DNA of 42,690 bases from the IMG/VR virus record IMGVR_UViG_2718217863_000003. The stretch is one strand, 5' to 3'. The notes below the pieces were generated by a model. That model made no database searches. It had not been told where the DNA came from and saw nothing but the letters and a program-made list of their open reading frames with translations. This document shows, piece after piece, positions 1 through 9,459 of the stretch (position 1 is its first letter; each line of letters begins with the position of its first letter). The translations under genes and the position numbers were made by a program. The stretch comes from a virus. Lineage: Duplodnaviria; Heunggongvirae; Uroviricota; Caudoviricetes.

Positions 1-327
1 ATGACTAAAAATACTCGTTTTTCCCCCGAAGTCCGTCAACGGGCAGTCCGTATGGTTCTGGAAAGTCAGAGCGAATATGACTCACAATGGGCGACAATTT
101 GTTCCATTGCTCCAAAGATTGGCTGTACGCCGGAGACTCTGCGTGTCTGGGTTCGCCAGCATGAGCGGGATACCGGGGGCGGTGATGGAGGGCTCACCAC
201 CGCTGAACGTCAGCGTCTGAAAGAGCTGGAACGTGAAAATCGTGAACTGCGCCGCAGTAACGATATCCTTCGCCAGGCTTCCGCTTATTTTGCGAAGGCG
301 GAGTTCGACCGCCTCTGGAAAAAATGA
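1..327 (+). CDS. IS3-family transposase OrfA (HTH)
   Basis: 108-aa [22 protein letters not shown]..., leucine-zipper-like C-terminus; ends in A-rich slippery run. Confidence 0.9.
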
Positions 328-1214
328 TGCCACTGCTGGATAAGCTGCGTGAGCAGTACGGGGTCGGACCGCTATGCAGCGAACTGCATATTGCCCCGTC
401 AACGTATTACCACTGTCAGCAACAGCGACATCATCCGGATAAACGCAGTGCCCGTGCGCAGCGCGATGACTGGCTGAAGAAAGAGATACAGCGCGTATAC
501 GATGAAAATCACAAGGTATACGGTGTGCGTAAAGTCTGGCGTCAGTTGTTACGGGAAGGTATCAGAGTGGCCAGATGCACTGTGGCACGTCTCATGGCGG
601 TTATGGGACTTGCCGGTGTTCTCCGGGGTAAAAAGGTCCGTACGACCATCAGCCGGAAAGCCGTTGCCGCAGGCGACCGCGTAAACCGTCAGTTCGTGGC
701 AGAACGACCTGACCAGCTGTGGGTGGCTGATTTTACTTACGTCAGCACATGGCGGGGCTTCGTCTATGTGGCGTTCATCATTGATGTGTTTGCCGGATAC
801 ATCGTGGGGTGGCGGGTCTCATCGTCCATGGAAACGACATTCGTGCTGGATGCACTGGAGCAGGCGTTATGGGCCCGTCGACCGTCCGGCACGGTCCATC
901 ACAGTGATAAAGGTTCTCAGTATGTATCGCTGGCCTACACACAGCGGCTTAAGGAAGCCGGATTACTGGCATCAACAGGAAGTACAGGCGACTCGTATGA
1001 CAACGCGATGGCGGAGAGCATCAATGGTCTTTACAAAGCGGAGGTAATACACCGTAAGAGCTGGAAAAACCGTGCAGAAGTGGAACTGGCCACACTCACG
1101 TGGGTGGACTGGTATAACAATCGACGATTGCTGGAAAGGCTGGGCCATACTCCTCCGGCAGAAGCAGAAAAAGCTTATTATGCTTCCATCGGAAACGATG
1201 ATCTGGCAGCCTGA
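324..1214 (+). CDS. IS3-family transposase OrfB (DDE integrase domain), expressed as OrfAB by -1 frameshift
   Basis: 296-aa ORF overlapping orfA in -1 frame at GGAAAAAATGATG; DDE-type motifs. Confidence 0.9.
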
Positions 1215-1216
1215 GT

Positions 1217-4200
1217 TCACAGATAAAACACTCTCCAGGAAACCCGGGGCGGTTCAGTAAGGTTTTGCCCGTCTGTTGTTTTTTGCGCATAAAACAGATA
1301 CGCAGCAGACGTTCCAACCTCAAAAACGTTTTGTCGAGTACTGGAACCCCACACCCTGATACTAACTGGTAGTTCTGAATTACCTGAATTAAGTAAAGCA
1401 AAACGATTGCCAGTCCCTGTTTGTTTTCTAATTACTAAATCGGCAGTTGAGTTAACCTCATCTTTGTTGATGGTTAGCGCCTGCGCTGTAGCACCGTTAA
1501 CAGTGCCACTTAGTAGTTGAACCGCTCCATCATCGCCATTTAACAGCACTTGAGCGCTGCTTCTGTGGTTTTTCAGGAACAACATTTTGCCTGTGCTTTC
1601 TGATGTGCCTACCGACCACGCCGAATTGGTTCCAGTGCTATCAACACCGCGCACAGCACAATTCATACTACTGTAATCTGACGTACTCCCCAGCACATCA
1701 ACACGCCCGCCGCCTAATTTTGATGGAGTCGTCGAGGTTAACGACCTGACGGTTACATCCTGATTCCATCCTGAAACAACTACCTGACTCCACTCCGTCC
1801 AGTTTCCATTGACAACAAAGCGAACGTATATGCGTTTTGTGTCGCTGCCAATCAGCGTTTGCATGATCGCATAATCTGAACCCGTAGTTTTACGAGTAGA
1901 TTCTACACGTAGCAAAAAGTTACCGCTTACGCCGTCAGGCTTATTGGTAATATATGCACCACCTGCAACAGTTTTGCATTGATAGTATTTAACAGATCCA
2001 GCCACTGTATTAGCAATGATCAAGTCGTTTAAATCAATAGTCTTGTTGTCAATGGTTTCCGGCTCGATAGATCCCGCCATACCTGCGTTAAATGTGGCAA
2101 AGTCAGAAAAGGTTGTTTTACCGCCTACCGTCACCCCGCTATCGAGTTTTGCTTGTGTGATTACTTTGCTGTTTTTTGTGTGGTCAGAATAACTACCAAA
2201 ATACAAATCACCGTCACCAGCTATACCCAGGTATTTTTGATCAACATCATCAACCTTAAACCCAATGGACAAGTTTTTAATTGTGTTGTTGCTCGTTAAA
2301 ACCAAAGGCGTATGCTGAGATCCTTTGATGCTTACCGTAGTGTTATCGGAACTGGTGCTTGTGTTTGCAAATTCTGCGGTGGCTGCGCTGATTTTGTAAG
2401 TTATTTTTAGATTGCGGGCCTCAACCCTCCCGTCGTGGCGAACAATAAAATCACCACTTGATTCACCTTTTGTGTTTTTCGCCCTGATGTGGATTTCGCC
2501 AAGTGATTCGTTGTTTTCAGGCGACCAAACAACGCCGCGCTCGCTTCCGTCGTTGTTCATGAACCACAGATGAGCGGTTCCTTTTGCTGATTTTAGCCTG
2601 ATAGATGGCGTTTCTTTCAATATATCAAGATCACCAGACATAACATCGCCGGATTTTTTCACCTGCGCATCGTTAGTTACGTTGCCAAGTCCAACATCCG
2701 ATTTCGACGGCTTGTTTGCCGAGCCGTATAGCTCATTGATGCTAAAAGTCCCGTTGTTAAGCCGGGCATCGTTGCCGGCATAGATCTTAATCTTCGCGGT
2801 TGAGTAGTCGATATTGATCGCTGACCACGTATCGCCGCACCGCGAGAATATACCAGAACCGTGGCTATAAATGGTCGCCGTGCTTCCGGTCGGCTTATCA
2901 CCGCGCCAGAAATGACCACCTTTGTCACGCAGAGCTTTTAAGATCTCTACATCGCTCATCTTGCCGTTTGTTGATATCCCGCTACCGCCAAGACCGAAAG
3001 CGCCTGTAAGCATAGCATTAGAAAGACCCAAATCTGCTTTAGTCGGCTTGTTTAACTGGTCGTAAATCCTTACAACGGGGCTTTCAACATATCCAGAAGG
3101 CGCGGCGGTTTGCTTAACAAATCCGTCTGGAATGTATAATTCCGGGCGTGCCGTCTGCGCCAGCACCGCAACCTTTGCGCCGTTGATAAATGCGCGCTGG
3201 AAGGCCCAAACCTCAATAAAGCCGTCACCTTTAACCAGGCCGTAACGCATCTGGTTGTTATCGGTCAGCCCGGTTGACCCTAAGCGGCGTATACTCAGAT
3301 GACGAGAAACATTATCCGCACTAAGCAAAGAAGGCAGACCGCGCGCCGAGATCTCGATAAAGTCAATGTTTCCGTAAGGGGAGCCGTAGTTACCGGCATT
3401 AGTAACCATTAGCGTTACATGGCAATTGCCGCTTCCGGGATCGGAAAGTTTCGCGATCTTTATGTAAAAAGACTCATTACCAGTAACAACGGGCCAATCG
3501 TATTGCGTCATCGGGCTGACGAGTCCCCCGACCTTGTCGAGATATTCTTTCGCCTTGTTCTCTGACGCTTTAGCGTTGGTTTCGCTGACCTTTGCTGCTG
3601 CCTCACTATTTTTCGCGTTGGTTTCTGATTTTTTGGCTGCTGTCGCGGAGTTTGCCGATGCAGTTTGTGAGTCTGCTGCCGCCTGTGCGCTGTTATCCGC
3701 ATTCGTCTCAGACGTTTTTGCGGCCTTCGCGGAATTTCCTGCTGCCGTTGCCGAGGAAGCTGCACTGCCGGCGCTCGAGGCAGCGCTCGTTTCTGATGAT
3801 TTTGCCGCCACTTTTGAAGCCGACGCATCCCGGGCTGAGGTGGCAGCTTCTGACGCTTTCGTGGTCGCGGTGGATGCAGATGTGGCCGCAGATTTTTGTG
3901 ATGCTGCGGCATTCATTTCCGACGTTTTCGCTGCACCGGCACTGGTGGCTGCCGCGCTTTTTGAAGACTCTGCGGCGGCAGCACTTTTTGATGCTTCAGT
4001 GGCCTTTGTTGATGCCGTTCCTGCGCTGGAAGACGCTGACTGAGCCGACGACGCGGCCTGTCCGGCTGACGTGCTGGCTGCACGTGCTGAGCCTGCAGCA
4101 TCAGTCGCACGGGTTGCCGCCTCACGGGCTGATGTGCTGGCATCGCTGGCTGACTTCTTCGCGGCTGCCGTGTTCTGTGCCACCGCGGACGCGTTACGCG

Positions 4201-4540
4201 CCACCTCTTCCACCATCAGTTCAAAACGGCGCAGTGCCTCAGGACGGGCATCATCCTCCGTCATGGCACCGAGAAAATCATTCAGCGTACCGGGTCGGGA
4301 ATCTTCATACACGGTGATGGTCCCGGCATGTGACGGCGGGAATCCTTCCACCAACAGAATAACGCTGTACTGACCGTACTCAACGTCCATGCTGTAACGC
4401 CCGGCTTCATCCGGATTTTCTGAGGCCAGCGTGTTCACCACCACCGTGGTACTGTTACGTTTTGCTTTCAGCTGGATTGTGCAGTTCTGTACCGGTTTTC
4501 CTGTGCCGTCTTTCAGTACACCTGAAATCTTTACTGCCAT
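1217..4540 (-). CDS. stf: side tail fiber protein (lambda Stf-like), 3' end interrupted by the IS; last ~13 codons and stop are IS-derived
   Basis: N-terminus MAVKISGVLKDGTGKPVQNCTIQLKA... (start at third codon of track ORF); long Ala/Ser/Thr-rich repeat region; ORF runs into IS right end. Confidence 0.8.
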   Translation of the reverse strand: MAVKISGVLKDGTGKPVQNCTIQLKAKRNSTTVVVNTLASENPDEAGRYSMDVEYGQYSVILLVEGFPPSHAGTITVYEDSRPGTLNDFLGAMTEDDARPEALRRFELMVEEVARNASAVAQNTAAAKKSASDASTSAREAATRATDAAGSARAASTSAGQAASSAQSASSSAGTASTKATEASKSAAAAESSKSAAATSAGAAKTSEMNAAASQKSAATSASTATTKASEAATSARDASASKVAAKSSETSAASSAGSAASSATAAGNSAKAAKTSETNADNSAQAAADSQTASANSATAAKKSETNAKNSEAAAKVSETNAKASENKAKEYLDKVGGLVSPMTQYDWPVVTGNESFYIKIAKLSDPGSGNCHVTLMVTNAGNYGSPYGNIDFIEISARGLPSLLSADNVSRHLSIRRLGSTGLTDNNQMRYGLVKGDGFIEVWAFQRAFINGAKVAVLAQTARPELYIPDGFVKQTAAPSGYVESPVVRIYDQLNKPTKADLGLSNAMLTGAFGLGGSGISTNGKMSDVEILKALRDKGGHFWRGDKPTGSTATIYSHGSGIFSRCGDTWSAINIDYSTAKIKIYAGNDARLNNGTFSINELYGSANKPSKSDVGLGNVTNDAQVKKSGDVMSGDLDILKETPSIRLKSAKGTAHLWFMNNDGSERGVVWSPENNESLGEIHIRAKNTKGESSGDFIVRHDGRVEARNLKITYKISAATAEFANTSTSSDNTTVSIKGSQHTPLVLTSNNTIKNLSIGFKVDDVDQKYLGIAGDGDLYFGSYSDHTKNSKVITQAKLDSGVTVGGKTTFSDFATFNAGMAGSIEPETIDNKTIDLNDLIIANTVAGSVKYYQCKTVAGGAYITNKPDGVSGNFLLRVESTRKTTGSDYAIMQTLIGSDTKRIYVRFVVNGNWTEWSQVVVSGWNQDVTVRSLTSTTPSKLGGGRVDVLGSTSDYSSMNCAVRGVDSTGTNSAWSVGTSESTGKMLFLKNHRSSAQVLLNGDDGAVQLLSGTVNGATAQALTINKDEVNSTADLVIRKQTGTGNRFALLNSGNSELPVSIRVWGSSTRQNVFEVGTSAAYLFYAQKTTDGQNLTEPPRVSWRVFYL

Positions 4541-4551
4541 ATTCACCCCAC

Positions 4552-4604: not shown

Positions 4605-5204
4605 TCAGAATTTATAACCGACACCCACGATGAAACCGTCAGTGCGCCAGTCGCCACTGCCGGAACCTTCATAAGCGACATCAACGGCCACGGATTCGGT
4701 CGGGTTAAACTGCACGCCAGCCCCCCACGCCAGAGACGTGTTGCTGTGGCGACCGTCATCACTTCCGGTCAGCACGTCGTGCGTTTTCCCCTTGTTGTCA
4801 GTTACGCGGAGATAATCCCCGGAGAAAGTCGACACACGGCTGTAAGCCATACCCGCCATCGCATACGCGCTGAACCATTCATTCACGCGCACAGACGGCC
4901 CCGCCATCACGCTGAACCAGCGGTTACGCACGGAATCTTCATGCCAGCGGGTATCGCTGTAATGCGTTTTTTGCTCATCTTTGGCATTGGCATAACTGAA
5001 TGACGTCACCAGCCCCAGCGTGTCCGTAAATTCATAACGGTATTTCACGTTAATCCCGTTCAGATTATCGCTGCCGGGGACGTTCGTACGGGCATGAAGA
5101 TACCCTGCGCTCAGTGTGGACTGGTGTTCAGACGCCCATGCAGGCGTACCTGATACGGCCAGACAGATGGCTGCGGACAAAATAGCTGCATAAACTTTAC
5201 GCAT
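4605..5204 (-). CDS. lom: Lom/Ail-family outer membrane beta-barrel protein
   Basis: 199 aa, signal peptide, C-terminal ...GVGYKF; position between J and stf as in lambda. Confidence 0.9.
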   Translation of the reverse strand: MRKVYAAILSAAICLAVSGTPAWASEHQSTLSAGYLHARTNVPGSDNLNGINVKYRYEFTDTLGLVTSFSYANAKDEQKTHYSDTRWHEDSVRNRWFSVMAGPSVRVNEWFSAYAMAGMAYSRVSTFSGDYLRVTDNKGKTHDVLTGSDDGRHSNTSLAWGAGVQFNPTESVAVDVAYEGSGSGDWRTDGFIVGVGYKF

Positions 5205-5271: not shown

Positions 5272-8200
5272 TCAGCTAATCGTGATGCCTGCAGTGGCTT
5301 TCTTCATCACCACAACCAGCAAATCGCTGATACTGGCTGTGGGATACCAGTTATTTACCAGCCATGCTGACACCGAAAACTCCAGTGTCATGTGACCGTG
5401 ACCGGCAGGCATATCAATAACACCACTGTAAATCAGCGTATTATCCAGCGCGGTACGGTTATAAATTTCAGCACCGTTTTTCCGTACTATCAGGCGGCAT
5501 GACGAATAAATATCGTTATTCTCCCGCTCATGTTTAGCGCCGCTGAATGCCACCGCCGGAATAACAATCTGCCGGTCAAACGGCTGATCGTCATAAACCC
5601 TGACGGTGATGGTCCCTGATGGCCACCGTTCCGGTGCACGGGAGTCCCGGGGGAAAGCTTTGCCCACTGTTTTAACGAGATCGCCTTCAATCTGGTTGGC
5701 GGACAGTTTTCCCAGAACCCGACAGTTCTCGTTAATCGTGACGTTGTTGAGCGTCCCGGCGTTCGCATTCACGTTACCGCTGATATCGGCATTTTTCGCC
5801 GTCAGCCGCCCGTCCGGTGTCAGGGAAAATACCGGAGGATTACCGCCGCTGGTAATGGTGGGAGCCGTCAGGCGTTTCAGGAACACTTCGTTCATGAATA
5901 TCTGATCGCCCTGCCCAACAAACATCGGCTTTGTGTTGCCATTCGCAGGATTAATCATCGCAATCCTGTCTGCCGCCAGCAGCACCTGACTCTGCATGCC
6001 GTCAGGGGTGTTCTCAATACCGGCACCAATACCCGCGATATAAAGGCGTCCGTCCTGCATCTGCTGCAGCTTCACAGCCCACATGCTGTTCAGGTTATTA
6101 TTTGTATCAACCTGAACCTTCTGTATCTGCTGAATTGCCGCACTCTGGTCTTCCAGTTTCTTATTGACGGTCTGCGTGATTTCATTGCTGACATCCGTAA
6201 TGGACGTCCTGATTTCAGCCAGGTCAGGCGCAAGCTGACCGTTATCAATCTGCGTCCACAGCTCCTGAGCCAGATGGGTTTTCCCTATCTCGCCTTTGAA
6301 AAAATCCAGATAACCGGATGCATCATCACTCGGCTGACCAACAGCCTCCACGAATGCCGATTTGCCAACGGTGTTCACACTGCGGATATAAAAGTAATAA
6401 TCATGGCCCGGTTTGATATTGATACTGGCGGCTATCCAGTACAGCGCCGTGCCAAGATAGCGTGCTGTGGTTTCAACCTGCCTGATATCGGTAATCCGCT
6501 TTTCCGAGAACCAGAACTCAAACTGTACCGTCGGATCATAAACCGCAAGATGCGGCGTGGCGGTTATCTGAAAATAGCCCGGCGTCAGCTCAATCCGCGA
6601 CGGCGCTGCCGGTGCGGCAATCCGGAACGATACCGACGCCGGATCGCCCTGCTGCCCCCACGCATTTACTGCCCGGACTGTCAGCCTGTAGTTCCCCAGC
6701 GCCAGTTGTGTGAAGCGGTAAGTGGTTTCCGTCGTCCGGGCCGTGCTGACCAGCCACTCACTGCCGTCATCCGCTGTTACGGTCAGACGGAGCAGGAAGC
6801 TCACGCCCTTCACCACCTTCGGCGTGTCCCAGCGCGCCAGCACCTGATATTCCCCGCTGTCTGCGGTGACTTCGGCAGTCAGGTGCTGCACCGCTGGCGG
6901 CGTGACACCATTCACCGTGCCGCTCTGGTCGCCGTCAAAGTGCGCCCCGTTATCCACGATGGCTTCTTTTTCCGGTACATGCTGCACGGCGGTGATGGCA
7001 TACGTGCCGTCATCGTTCTCACGGATACTCACACAGCGGAACAGGCGCTGGCGCAGCGTCGGCAACTTCAGCCCCCACACGCTGTATTCTGCAACACCAT
7101 CAGGAACCCGGCTCACTTTCACCTTCACGCCGTCGGTGACGGACTGGACCTCCACGCTGACCGGATTACCCTGACCGTCAACCAGGCTTATCAGCGTGGT
7201 ACCGGAGGATGGCAGCGTGATTTCACGGTCGAGCGTCAGCGTCCGGGTCTGGCTGTTCACCGCCAGCACGCGCCCGCCGGTGCTGATACCCGCATAGTCA
7301 TCATCGCAGATTTCAATGACATCCCCCGGTACATGGCGAAGCCCTTCCGCACCCACGCTGAAGTCCACGGTCTGCGTTTCCAGCAGTTCCGTTTTAATCA
7401 GCCACAGCCCGGCGCGGTGCGCCTGCCCCCGGCTGGTACAGCCAAAGGCATCCATCTTCGTGACGTTACGACCGTAACGGGCAATGGCCTGCGTATCTTC
7501 AACAAGCTCTGTCGCCGTCTCCCAGCCGTTGTCCGGGTCAATCCAGTTCACCTCAACGGCATTATGGCGGTCTTTCAGGGCGCTGAAGCTGTAGCGGAAC
7601 GGCGCGCCATCATCCGGCATCACCACATTACTGCGGTTATAGGTCCACACCTTATCTGATGGTCGGTCCTGCACGAACGTCAGCGTCTGCCCGTTCCATA
7701 CCGGCATACAGCGCATCGCCGAGCAGAAATCACTGAGCACATCCCACGCCTTGCGCTGTGTGGTCAGGTACGCATTACAGGTGATGCGCGGCTCCGTGCC
7801 GCCAAAGCCGTCCGGCACCGACTGGTCGCAGTACTGGCCGATGACATACAGCGCCCATTTATCCACATCCGCCGCACCAAGACGTTTCCCCATGCCGTAG
7901 CGCGGATGGGTCAGCATATCCCACAGACACCAGGCCATGTTGTTGCTGTATGCCGGTTTAAACGTTCCGTCCCAGATACCGCTGTATTGCCGCGTCTGCG
8001 GGTTATAGTTCGACGGCACCTGCAGAATGCGCCCGCGCAGATGATAATTACGGCTCACCTGCTGGCTGCCGAACTGCTCCGAATCCACCTGTACGCCGAC
8101 CAGTGCCGTGTTCGGGTAGCACTGTTTCACATCGATGATTTCGGTGTATGACGACCAGAGCGTTTTGTTCTGCAGCTGGTCTGTGGTGCTGTCCGGCGTC

Positions 8201-8751
8201 ATCCTGCGCATCCGGATATTAAACGGGCGCGGCGGCAGGTTATCCACCACCACCGAGGCCAGATACTGCGAGGTGGTTTTGCCCTTAATGGTGATGTCTT
8301 TTTCCGTCACCCAGCCACCATTACGCTGTATCTGAACCAGCAGGCGAACTTCCGACGGATTCCGGTCCCCCTTTGAGGTGGTTTCCACCAGTGCCTGCAC
8401 ACCGAAGGTAAAGCGCAGACGGTCGATGTTTGCAGACGTGATGGTGCGGGTGATCGGCGTGTCATATTTCACTTCCGTACCCAGCACCGTCTCGGAGCCG
8501 GAGGATTCAAACCCCTCCGGCGGTGTCTGCTCCTGCTCACCGGCACGGAACACCACCGTGACACCGGAGATGTTGGTATTCCCCTCAGTGTCCAGCACCG
8601 GCGTACTGTTCAGCAGCACGCTTTTTAATCCATCCACCGGACCTTCAACCGGCCCTTCACTGATGGCGTCTATCACGCTCAGCATCTGGGATGATTTCAG
8701 GTTGTCCTTCGCTTCGCGCGGGGTATGCCCCTTACTGCTGCCTTTACCCAT
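5272..8751 (-). CDS. J: tail tip host specificity protein J
   Basis: 1159 aa; N-terminus [20 protein letters not shown]... as in lambda J; fibronectin-like repeats. Confidence 0.95.
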
Positions 8752-8811
8752 TCCTCACGCTCCAGAAACGACAAAACCGCCCTGAGGCGGTTTCACATAA
8801 AACGTTTTGCA

Positions 8812-9459
8812 TCAGCGACCAATCACCACAACCTGACCACCGTCCCCTTCGTCTGCCGTGCTGATCTCCTGAGAAGCCACCCGCGACCCCACGCGCATTT
8901 CACCGTACAGAACGGGCAGAACATTGCCCTGGGCAACCATGTTATCCAGTGAGGAGAAATAGGTGTTCTGCTTACCGTTATCCGTTGTCTGTGTACGGGG
9001 AGTTCTGGCTTTCGGTGCCAGCATCTGCGCCACACCGCCAAGGATCATACTGGCCCCCGCAGCATACATGCCCGATACAGCCGCAGCTCCCAGCCAGCCC
9101 ACAGGGTTCCACCACGCCACTGCAATCAGCGCCGCACCCAGCACCGCCTGAAACACACCGCCACTTTTTGCTCCCGCAAGACGCGGAACGATGTGGATCA
9201 CGGCACCATTTTTCAGCGGCTCATTAAGACGGGCTGATAATTCGTTTTCGCCTGCATCACGCCCGGCAATGCGCACCTGATACCAGCCATCGCTCAGTTT
9301 CTGACGAAACGCCGGGATCTGCATGGCCAGCGCCCGGATGGCTTCGGCCCCCGTTTTCACACGAAGGTCGATGCGGCGGCCAAATCGTTGCAAATCCCCG
9401 TAAAGGCAGATACGTGCCATGCCCGGTGACGCCAGAGGGAGTGTGTGCGTCGCTGCCAT
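8812..9459 (-). CDS. I: tail assembly protein I
   Basis: 215 aa, MAATHTLPLASPGMARICLYGDL..., C-terminal ...GDGGQVVVIGR; synteny. Confidence 0.85.
   Translation of the reverse strand: MAATHTLPLASPGMARICLYGDLQRFGRRIDLRVKTGAEAIRALAMQIPAFRQKLSDGWYQVRIAGRDAGENELSARLNEPLKNGAVIHIVPRLAGAKSGGVFQAVLGAALIAVAWWNPVGWLGAAAVSGMYAAGASMILGGVAQMLAPKARTPRTQTTDNGKQNTYFSSLDNMVAQGNVLPVLYGEMRVGSRVASQEISTADEGDGGQVVVIGR

Follow-up and report, generated by a model that had tools for sequence, protein, structure and literature searches.

IS629 is known to generate target duplications of 3-4 bp and to be located preferentially in prophages (PMC3271280). Loss-of-function mutants of the lambda side tail fibre gene stf lose the side fibres and keep viability (PMC2762979). 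A different kind of phage fibre carries a C-terminal S74-type domain that folds and trimerises the fibre upstream of it and is then released by autocleavage at a Ser-Lys dyad (PMC8326128); pb1 of T5 is cleaved after Thr1263, before Ser1264, and its chaperone is immediately preceded by the receptor-binding tip (PMC4690869).

The DNA analysed here, a stretch of 42,690 nucleotides (the window), comes from a prophage of the lambda type that sits between potB and potC in E. coli of the ST167 lineage. Its genes follow the order J-lom-stf, as in lambda and phage Ayreon, and the position of stf after J and lom, together with the Pfam domain phage_tail_N (PF08400, residues 1-134, 238.8 bits), gives the lambda-type Stf. 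We consider it highly probable, taking the two parts together, that an IS629 insertion splits this gene and that fibre assembly would be lost as a result.

The IS629 element and its insertion site

The initial annotation reported an IS629-like element at the 3' end of stf, and its near-identity to annotated copies allows us to call it IS629 itself. Positions 1-1256 (plus strand) correspond to nucleotides 55-1310 of the complete 1310-bp element, the first 54 nt of which, left terminal repeat included, precede position 1 of the window. Over these 1256 nt Stx-phage copies labelled 'insertion sequence: IS3 family IS629' are 99.2-99.5% identical and the copy in AF017626.1 is 100% identical, the reference set being annotated GenBank copies and not the ISfinder entry. 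NZ_CP028578.2, whose flank is identical, shows the full element at positions 7947-9256 (1310 bp) of the extended locus L005, window coordinates being L005 coordinates minus 8000. It has the length of about 1310 bp and the imperfect terminal inverted repeats starting with TGAAC that are expected of IS629 (25 nt, 92% complementary, L005 7947-7971 paired with 9232-9256 in a repeat search), as well as two overlapping reading frames joined by a -1 programmed frameshift and a DDE (rve) transposase, annotated by PGAP as a programmed-frameshift transposase across 1-1214 (Table 1). This copy is complete and apparently active.

The boundary between the element and host DNA lies between positions 1256 and 1257. 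The flanks read ...TTTACAGTA/TGAACC...GGTTCA/GTAAGG in NZ_CP028578.2 (slashes mark the element ends) and are identical in strain Sanji, so that the target duplication, for which the initial annotation proposed to look left of the window, is present as GTA on both sides and agrees with the 3-4 bp expected of IS629; in the empty site of HUM3355 GTA is single. In the WCHEC005784 assembly, identical to the window over positions 1-2600, the element is flanked by GTA and the remaining 157 codons of stf stand directly beyond it, where the missing 3' part had been predicted. Removal of the element and of one GTA gives a stop-free reading frame of 3759 nt (1252 aa), which matches the uninterrupted HUM3355 gene in the same potB/potC prophage at 100% identity and is as long as the Stf of phage Ayreon (87% amino acid identity). 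An 800-nt query representing the empty site was covered without a break in 668 genomes, the best 39 listed single-piece matches being 99-100% identical, and no intact relative stopping at codon 1095 was found. A complete IS629 has transposed into the 3' part of stf and made the GTA duplication in doing so, and the disruption proposed initially stands as a simple insertion.

Among 5426 complete E. coli genomes, 176 share this IS629/stf junction, including known ST167 strains, and the locus exists in intron-bearing, intron-less with a second IS, and 263-bp mini-IS variants. Because a 1.26-kb stretch matches a named element almost perfectly and one junction recurs in 176 independent complete genomes, chance can be discounted. 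An inversion between two inverted IS629 copies was also considered and rejected, the 646-bp spacer being collinear with an IS-free relative.

Table 1. Features of the IS629/stf locus, in window coordinates
Feature	Position	Strand	Basis
IS629 orfA (HTH, N-terminal part of transposase)	1-327	+	Pfam HTH_Tnp_1, 7e-13
IS629 orfB (DDE/rve transposase)	324-1214	+	Pfam rve 8e-28, HTH_21 3e-18; NCBIfam NF033516 IS3 family transposase 1e-93
ALIL frameshift pseudoknot	282-398	+	Rfam RF01497, 120.2 bits (gathering score 50)
A6 slippery run, -1 frameshift signal joining orfA and orfB	319-324	+	read from sequence
IS629 right terminal inverted repeat	1232-1256		repeat pairing
Target-site duplication GTA, right copy	1257-1259		left copy outside the window, directly before the IS left end
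stf', chimeric truncated side tail fibre, 1107 aa	1217-4540	-	ORF translation; PGAP CDS WP_223349244.1
IS-derived tail of stf' (EPPRVSWRVFYL and stop)	1217-1255	-	antisense through the IS right end, read from sequence
lom (Ail/Lom family protein)	4605-5204	-	PGAP
gpJ tail tip attachment protein, apparently intact primary receptor-binding protein	5272-8751	-	1159-aa ORF; PGAP gpJ

The chimeric fibre and the severed C-terminal domain

The open frame of stf' runs over 1217..4546 on the minus strand and ends in ...TTDGQNLTEPPRVSWRVFYL before the stop. Its translation is both chimeric and truncated, as had been predicted: native residues 1-1095, of which the last, Thr1095, is encoded by a codon straddling the IS/host boundary, are followed by 12 residues coded by the element. 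The estimate that about 13 codons and the stop are IS-derived was essentially right, since twelve codons and the TGA at 1217-1219 lie wholly within the element. The insertion stands after codon 1095, 13 codons before the predicted cleavage site, and stf' therefore retains 1095 of the 1108 predicted mature residues.

The initial annotation assumed that the native receptor-binding region had been lost, and here our analysis leads to another reading. In the restored protein Peptidase_S74 (PF13884, 'chaperone of endosialidase') lies at residues 1109-1160 (60.1 bits against a cutoff of 22, 2.5e-16), and it is absent from the truncated frame of the window itself. At the start of this domain there is a putative catalytic Ser-Lys dyad, S1109-DRRL-K1114, whose S-x4-K spacing equals that of S1264/K1269 of pb1 and S911/K916 of endoNF, and both residues are invariant in 26 homologues. 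The surrounding SSDRRxK motif aligns with the chaperone region of S16 gp37 (PDB 6f45), which reads SSDRRIK. A search with the C-terminal 443 aa listed 120 homologues, of which 117 have PF13884; the remaining three align with no more than 72% of the query. Taken together, the Pfam placement and the gp37 alignment indicate that the severed part is not the receptor-binding region but an intramolecular chaperone with predicted autocleavage, together with the last 13 residues of the mature protein.

The 'pyocin knob' region, as PGAP names it, is upstream of the element and is retained, its placement resting on one well-predicted block, the PGAP names and weak Foldseek matches to R-pyocin fibres. 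The AlphaFold model of the distal part, made for the 96%-identical homologue P0001 with a 26-sequence alignment, is of poor quality (pLDDT 50.6 on average, confident at residues ~120-210 only), and because of this the Foldseek matches against PDB, to R-pyocin fibres and phi812 receptor-binding proteins, are marginal (E 6e-4 to 1e-2). A phmmer search of PDB with the C-terminal 455 aa pointed solely to the chaperone region of S16 gp37 and to shaft motifs of T4 gp34, matches to antibodies having been set aside as spurious, and an NCBIfam scan of the restored fibre returned no family. The intact 1252-aa protein starts with an N-terminal anchor of the lambda Stf type, continues as a long shaft with the knob region at its distal end, and closes with the Peptidase_S74 domain, which would drive trimerisation of the upstream fibre and then cut itself off at the Ser1109/Lys1114 dyad.

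A tfa chaperone gene had been expected beyond the element, and a tfa-like remnant is indeed located there; as a functional chaperone gene the expectation fails, the remnant being a 44-codon C-terminal relic that is present also in the IS-free HUM3355 and HD12480. The separate full Tfa gene that directly follows stf in the lambda type is thus missing, and phage Ayreon has no annotated tfa either. Fibres of this type have the chaperone built into their own chain.

Probable consequences for the virion and alternative readings

In the split gene the chaperone domain is stranded whole on the far side of the element, where the 3' fragment offers no in-frame ATG for a stand-alone chaperone frame, only internal TTG and GTG codons. 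A fibre deprived of its cis chaperone would not trimerise, and virions, if made, would have no side fibres and would rely on gpJ alone for adsorption, as laboratory lambda does. Judging from endoNF, T5 pb1 and related proteins, it is likely that no side fibres are assembled and that J-dependent adsorption stays intact.

The molecular event itself leaves little room for other explanations. Within the window alone, with the left flank out of view, it could appear that the fibre gene naturally ends here with the IS merely abutting it, or that an IS-caused deletion removed the distal part; the duplication and the in-frame remainder of 157 codons directly beyond the element speak against both, and the reading is already refuted by the perfect match of the restored gene to an uninterrupted allele and by the equal length of the Ayreon protein. 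As uninterrupted alleles are 157 codons longer, intact alleles do not end at the position of the element, the outcome that would have contradicted the initial annotation, and we leave this alternative practically no probability. Hardly more credible is a misplacement of an IS629 copy into stf through repeat collapse during assembly: IS629 is multicopy, and one genome has a collapsed or deleted IS629 of 263 bp at the same site, yet an identical junction with canonical ends and a duplication is found in 176 independently assembled complete genomes. A broader objection is that the prophage was already defective and the insertion is a neutral scar without phenotype, of value as a lineage marker only. 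To this speak an ISApl1 in iraM within the window, several pseudogenes marked by PGAP (a fragment of DUF1737, a hypothetical gene with a frameshift, the tfa/DinI relics), and another IS629 copy and a group II intron adjoining the locus, while head, tail, lysis, Q, int and xis genes are all annotated as intact. We regard this as rather unlikely, although a real contender, and it is compatible with the insertion and is no alternative to the molecular event.

With respect to the protein, one may suppose that the 1107-aa chimera can still fold, form trimers and attach to the tail as a working fibre or one of altered specificity, as it keeps the N-terminal anchor, nearly all predicted mature residues and the knob region, ends 13 residues before the maturation site, and has persisted with an open reading frame in 176 complete genomes. 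However, clonal persistence requires no selection, and a frame stays open by default absent further mutation; besides, the last 13 mature residues are swapped for an unrelated peptide, and in characterised family members it is the C-terminal domain that assembles the upstream trimer (PMC8326128, PMC4690869). We therefore hold a folding chimera to be improbable. It is very improbable that stf' assembles, whether aided in trans by the S74-domain fibres of other prophages in the same cell or by folding independently of a chaperone, with a tip remodelled by the 12-residue IS peptide; were it so, the element would have created a new adhesin terminus on ST167 prophage particles instead of destroying a gene. 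Insertion of IS629 with loss of the assembled side fibre is the reading that we prefer.

Significance and comparison with known systems

The insertion as such is ordinary prophage decay, already known and visible in public annotations, and its importance is modest. What changes is the functional reading: the C-terminus of such lambdoid side fibres would be a disposable self-cleaving chaperone and not an adhesin, from which we infer that a 3' truncation abolishes assembly rather than changing specificity. The junction is also a fixed and easily typed marker common to the 176 complete genomes, including known strains of the ST167 high-risk clone, and the variants of the locus could resolve sublineages. 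Caution is needed with prophage catalogues, as the GenBank 'phage' record ON470612.1 ends in the chimeric frame, which is labelled there as an ordinary side tail fibre protein; we do not take this record as proof of an infectious phage carrying stf', since it is a PHASTER prediction from Illumina contigs.

Compared with the IS629 copies in lambdoid prophages of E. coli O157:H7, the element is the same (99.2-99.5% at the nucleotide level), with a 3-bp duplication and a prophage target, but the host here belongs to phylogroup A ST167, the target gene is another one, and no role in virulence or Stx regulation is implied. A parallel in outcome is laboratory lambda (PaPa) relative to Ur-lambda, where an stf downstream of J-lom is inactivated near its distal part and gpJ is left as the sole adhesin (PMC2762979). 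The two share the PF08400 N-terminal anchor; the lesion is an IS insertion here and a 1-nt frameshift in lambda PaPa, and unlike the Tfa-dependent lambda Stf, the distal half of the present fibre is self-chaperoning, as its S74 domain suggests. In this it resembles T5 pb1 and the K1F endosialidase, with a C-terminal chaperone of about 140 residues starting at a Ser-x4-Lys dyad, which in the L-shaped tail fibre of T5 directly follows the receptor-binding tip; the similarity to both is restricted to the chaperone domain and short shaft motifs, and autocleavage is here a prediction. The Stf of Escherichia phage Ayreon (ATP61598.1) has the same 1252 aa and stands in the same J-lom-stf order, with 87% identity overall at the amino acid level and no full tfa behind it; it is uninterrupted, unlike the prophage gene, and diverges from it most at residues ~500-950 and 1050-1150.

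An IS629 insertion in the side tail fibre gene

By its sequence the element at the left edge of the window is IS629 itself, because positions 1-1256 match features labelled 'insertion sequence: IS3 family IS629' at 99.2-99.5% identity over the full length and the AF017626.1 copy at 100% (megablast, phage collection). The window starts exactly at the ATG of orfA, which is nucleotide 55 of the element, so that the left-hand terminal repeat and flank lie outside it, and the right end falls at 1256 (...CCCGGGGCGGTTCA).

The interrupted side tail fibre gene, stf, is read on the minus strand from 4546 (GTG) or 4540 (ATG, the PGAP start; MAVKISGVLKDG...) to a TGA at 1217-1219. At the start of its product Pfam places PF08400 (239 bits), the 'prophage tail fibre N-terminal' domain of lambda type, and the gene comes after gpJ and lom, the position that stf has in lambda. 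The native part ends ...GQNLT, where the Thr codon straddles the boundary between the IS and the host sequence, and the frame continues as EPPRVSWRVFYL and a stop, read from the antisense strand of the IS629 right end; this reading agrees to within one codon with the initial annotation, according to which about 13 codons and the stop are IS-derived.

Window positions 1-2600 are 100% identical in 29 complete E. coli chromosomes, and in one of these, WCHEC005784 (NZ_CP028578.2), the rest of the window aligns with one mismatch and one 1072-bp insertion, the ISApl1 copy of the window. In WCHEC005784, IS629 measures 1310 bp, has 25-nt terminal inverted repeats and is flanked on both sides by GTA (...TTTACAGTA/TGAACC...GGTTCA/GTAAGG...); directly past it PGAP places a 'tail fiber domain-containing protein, missing N-terminus' and then a 'tail fiber assembly protein, missing N-terminus'.

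When IS629 and one GTA are removed in silico, the gene becomes a single reading frame of 3759 nt (1252 aa, no internal stop), which is base for base (100%) the uninterrupted region of HUM3355, where the same prophage, free of any IS, is integrated at the same potB/potC site. The restored gene and the side tail fibre of phage Ayreon are exactly equal in length (87% aa identity), and 668 complete genomes cover an 800-nt 'empty-site' query without a break, the best 39 listed single-piece matches being 99-100% identical. That intact fibre genes might naturally end where the IS begins is contradicted by HUM3355, by Ayreon and by the 668 genomes, and we regard it as essentially certain that the insertion in stf, the structural part of our account, is real, simple and precise. 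PGAP divides the HUM3355 gene in two, but its 3759 nt contain neither a stop nor a frameshift, and therefore this division, which falls in the Ala/Ser-rich repeat region, is an artefact of annotation.

Features of the insertion, of related stf sites and of the prophage (L004 and L005, loci of WCHEC005784; window coordinates are obtained from L004 by adding 1072 beyond 26784)
Feature	Location	Strand	Details
IS629	window 1-1256	+	two overlapping ORFs; near-identity to annotated copies
IS629 first ORF (orfA)	window 1-327	+	108 aa; Pfam HTH_Tnp_1
IS629 second ORF	window 324-1214	+	296 aa; HTH_21, rve, rve_3; NCBIfam NF033516 'IS3 family transposase', 1e-93
ALIL frameshift pseudoknot	window 282-398	+	Rfam, 120 bits; contains A6 run at 319-324
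stf, HUM3355	L006 6923-10681		PGAP: two CDS, 'missing C-terminus' N-terminal part and S74 peptidase/tail fiber domain protein
stf, HD12480	L007 4923-8681		same 3759-nt span; PGAP likewise two features
ISApl1, complete	window 26785-27854		1070 bp, IS30 family; 2-bp duplication; inside iraM 3' end
Second IS629, WCHEC005784	L005 3721-7300, left of the window		inverted, 646 bp from first IS629; own GTT duplication
stf site, Sanji (NZ_CP011061.1)	L009 5571-9150		intron-bearing IS629, same GTA flanks; no second IS629
stf site, 11899A_LBHALD (NZ_CP130447.1)	L008 3401-3663		IS629 of ~263 bp, same site and duplication
Chimeric stf, ON470612.1 (Escherichia phage vB_EcoS-640R1)	L002 2055-5384		last gene; labelled normal side tail fiber protein
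iss (serum-survival lipoprotein, bor homologue)	L004 23854-24147		PGAP, WCHEC005784 prophage
tRNA-Ile	L004 27930-28005		PGAP, WCHEC005784 prophage

The chaperone domain beyond the insertion

IS629 lies after Stf residue 1095. Residues 1109-1160 of the restored protein form a Peptidase_S74 domain ('chaperone of endosialidase', PF13884; 2.5e-16, Pfam), and the best sequence match in the PDB is 6f45, the distal fibre gp37 of S16, whose alignment runs across ...CTTLNQSSDRRLKENI.... Ser1109 and Lys1114 are invariant across 26 homologues, and among the 120 database relatives listed for the C-terminal 443 aa, 117 have PF13884 and the other three cover at most 72% of the query. C-terminal domains of this type assemble the upstream trimer and then free themselves via a Ser-Lys dyad (PMC8326128), and in T5 pb1 the cleavage between Thr1263 and Ser1264 unmasks a receptor-binding tip immediately upstream (PMC4690869). 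By this analogy the mature fibre would comprise residues 1-1108 of the restored Stf, so that the truncated gene would lack 13 mature residues together with the whole cis-acting chaperone (144 residues).

A receptor-binding region beyond the IS, as had been expected, is not supported, because what lies there is the PF13884 chaperone, whereas the knob region is upstream: PGAP still names the truncated products 'pyocin knob domain-containing protein', and the one distal block that was modelled with confidence (pLDDT 81-88, approximately restored residues 905-995) gives weak Foldseek matches to R-pyocin fibres. A tfa gene had been expected there too, and tfa-derived sequence does follow stf, but only as a 44-codon C-terminal relic, which is likewise present in the IS-free HUM3355 and HD12480. 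Phage Ayreon has no tfa after stf, and this absence or relic state fits a self-chaperoning fibre. A chaperone expressed separately from the stranded stf 3' fragment seems unlikely, since no in-frame ATG was found in that fragment.

In its middle and distal parts (window ~1740-2600, residues ~650-935) the stf shaft shares ~78% nt identity with the long tail fibre gene of Tennessee (OZ075147.1), a T5-like Salmonella phage, which indicates that lambdoid side fibres and L-shaped fibres of T5 type have exchanged modules.

Distribution and variants of the site

Of 5426 complete E. coli genomes, 176 match a 300-nt probe of the IS629/stf junction in full, among them Sanji, CRE1493 and WCHEC005237, described as ST167 (PMC6392093); the insertion is therefore an inherited marker of a successful clone and not a private event. 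Duplications of 3-4 bp and a preferential residence in prophages are described for IS629 (PMC3271280), and this kind of event is fully known already. RefSeq annotation already shows the stf pieces as partial genes; we found no literature on exactly this insertion, and the Sanji genome paper (PMC6392093) mentions neither IS629 nor tail fibres.

The state of the site is polymorphic within the lineage, IS629 being intron-less in the window and intron-bearing in Sanji. The second IS629 of WCHEC005784 breaks the vestigial tfa remnant and is in turn split, after IS nucleotide ~790, by an LtrA-encoding group II intron of 2270 bp. In 11899A_LBHALD both ends of the element are retained and the interior is gone (joined at ...GTCAGAGCGAATAT/TGCTGGAAAGG...), a state that reflects either a mini-IS of natural origin or a collapse during assembly. 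ON470612.1 stops exactly at the IS-derived stop codon; it is a PHASTER-predicted prophage from Illumina contigs and not an isolated phage.

The ISApl1 copy in the prophage gene iraM shows 100% identity to annotated copies from plasmids of E. coli, Salmonella and Klebsiella, and it is missing in WCHEC005784, whose prophage is otherwise nearly identical. The WCHEC005784 prophage also carries hokD and dicB (PGAP), which together with iss and tRNA-Ile are typical lambdoid cargo genes.

Expected consequence for the particle

We propose that without the S74 domain the 1107-aa chimeric product should not trimerise, and that prophage particles, if any, would then lack side fibres. Adsorption mediated by J could persist, because the annotation shows gpJ (1159 aa) and the other genes for morphogenesis, lysis and integration as intact. 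The whole account, from the insertion to fibreless, J-adsorbing particles, appears to us highly probable, its phenotype resting on analogy within the family. The expected state parallels that of laboratory lambda, in which loss-of-function mutations of stf, frequently located in its final fifth, abolish the side fibres and leave the phage viable (PMC2762979).
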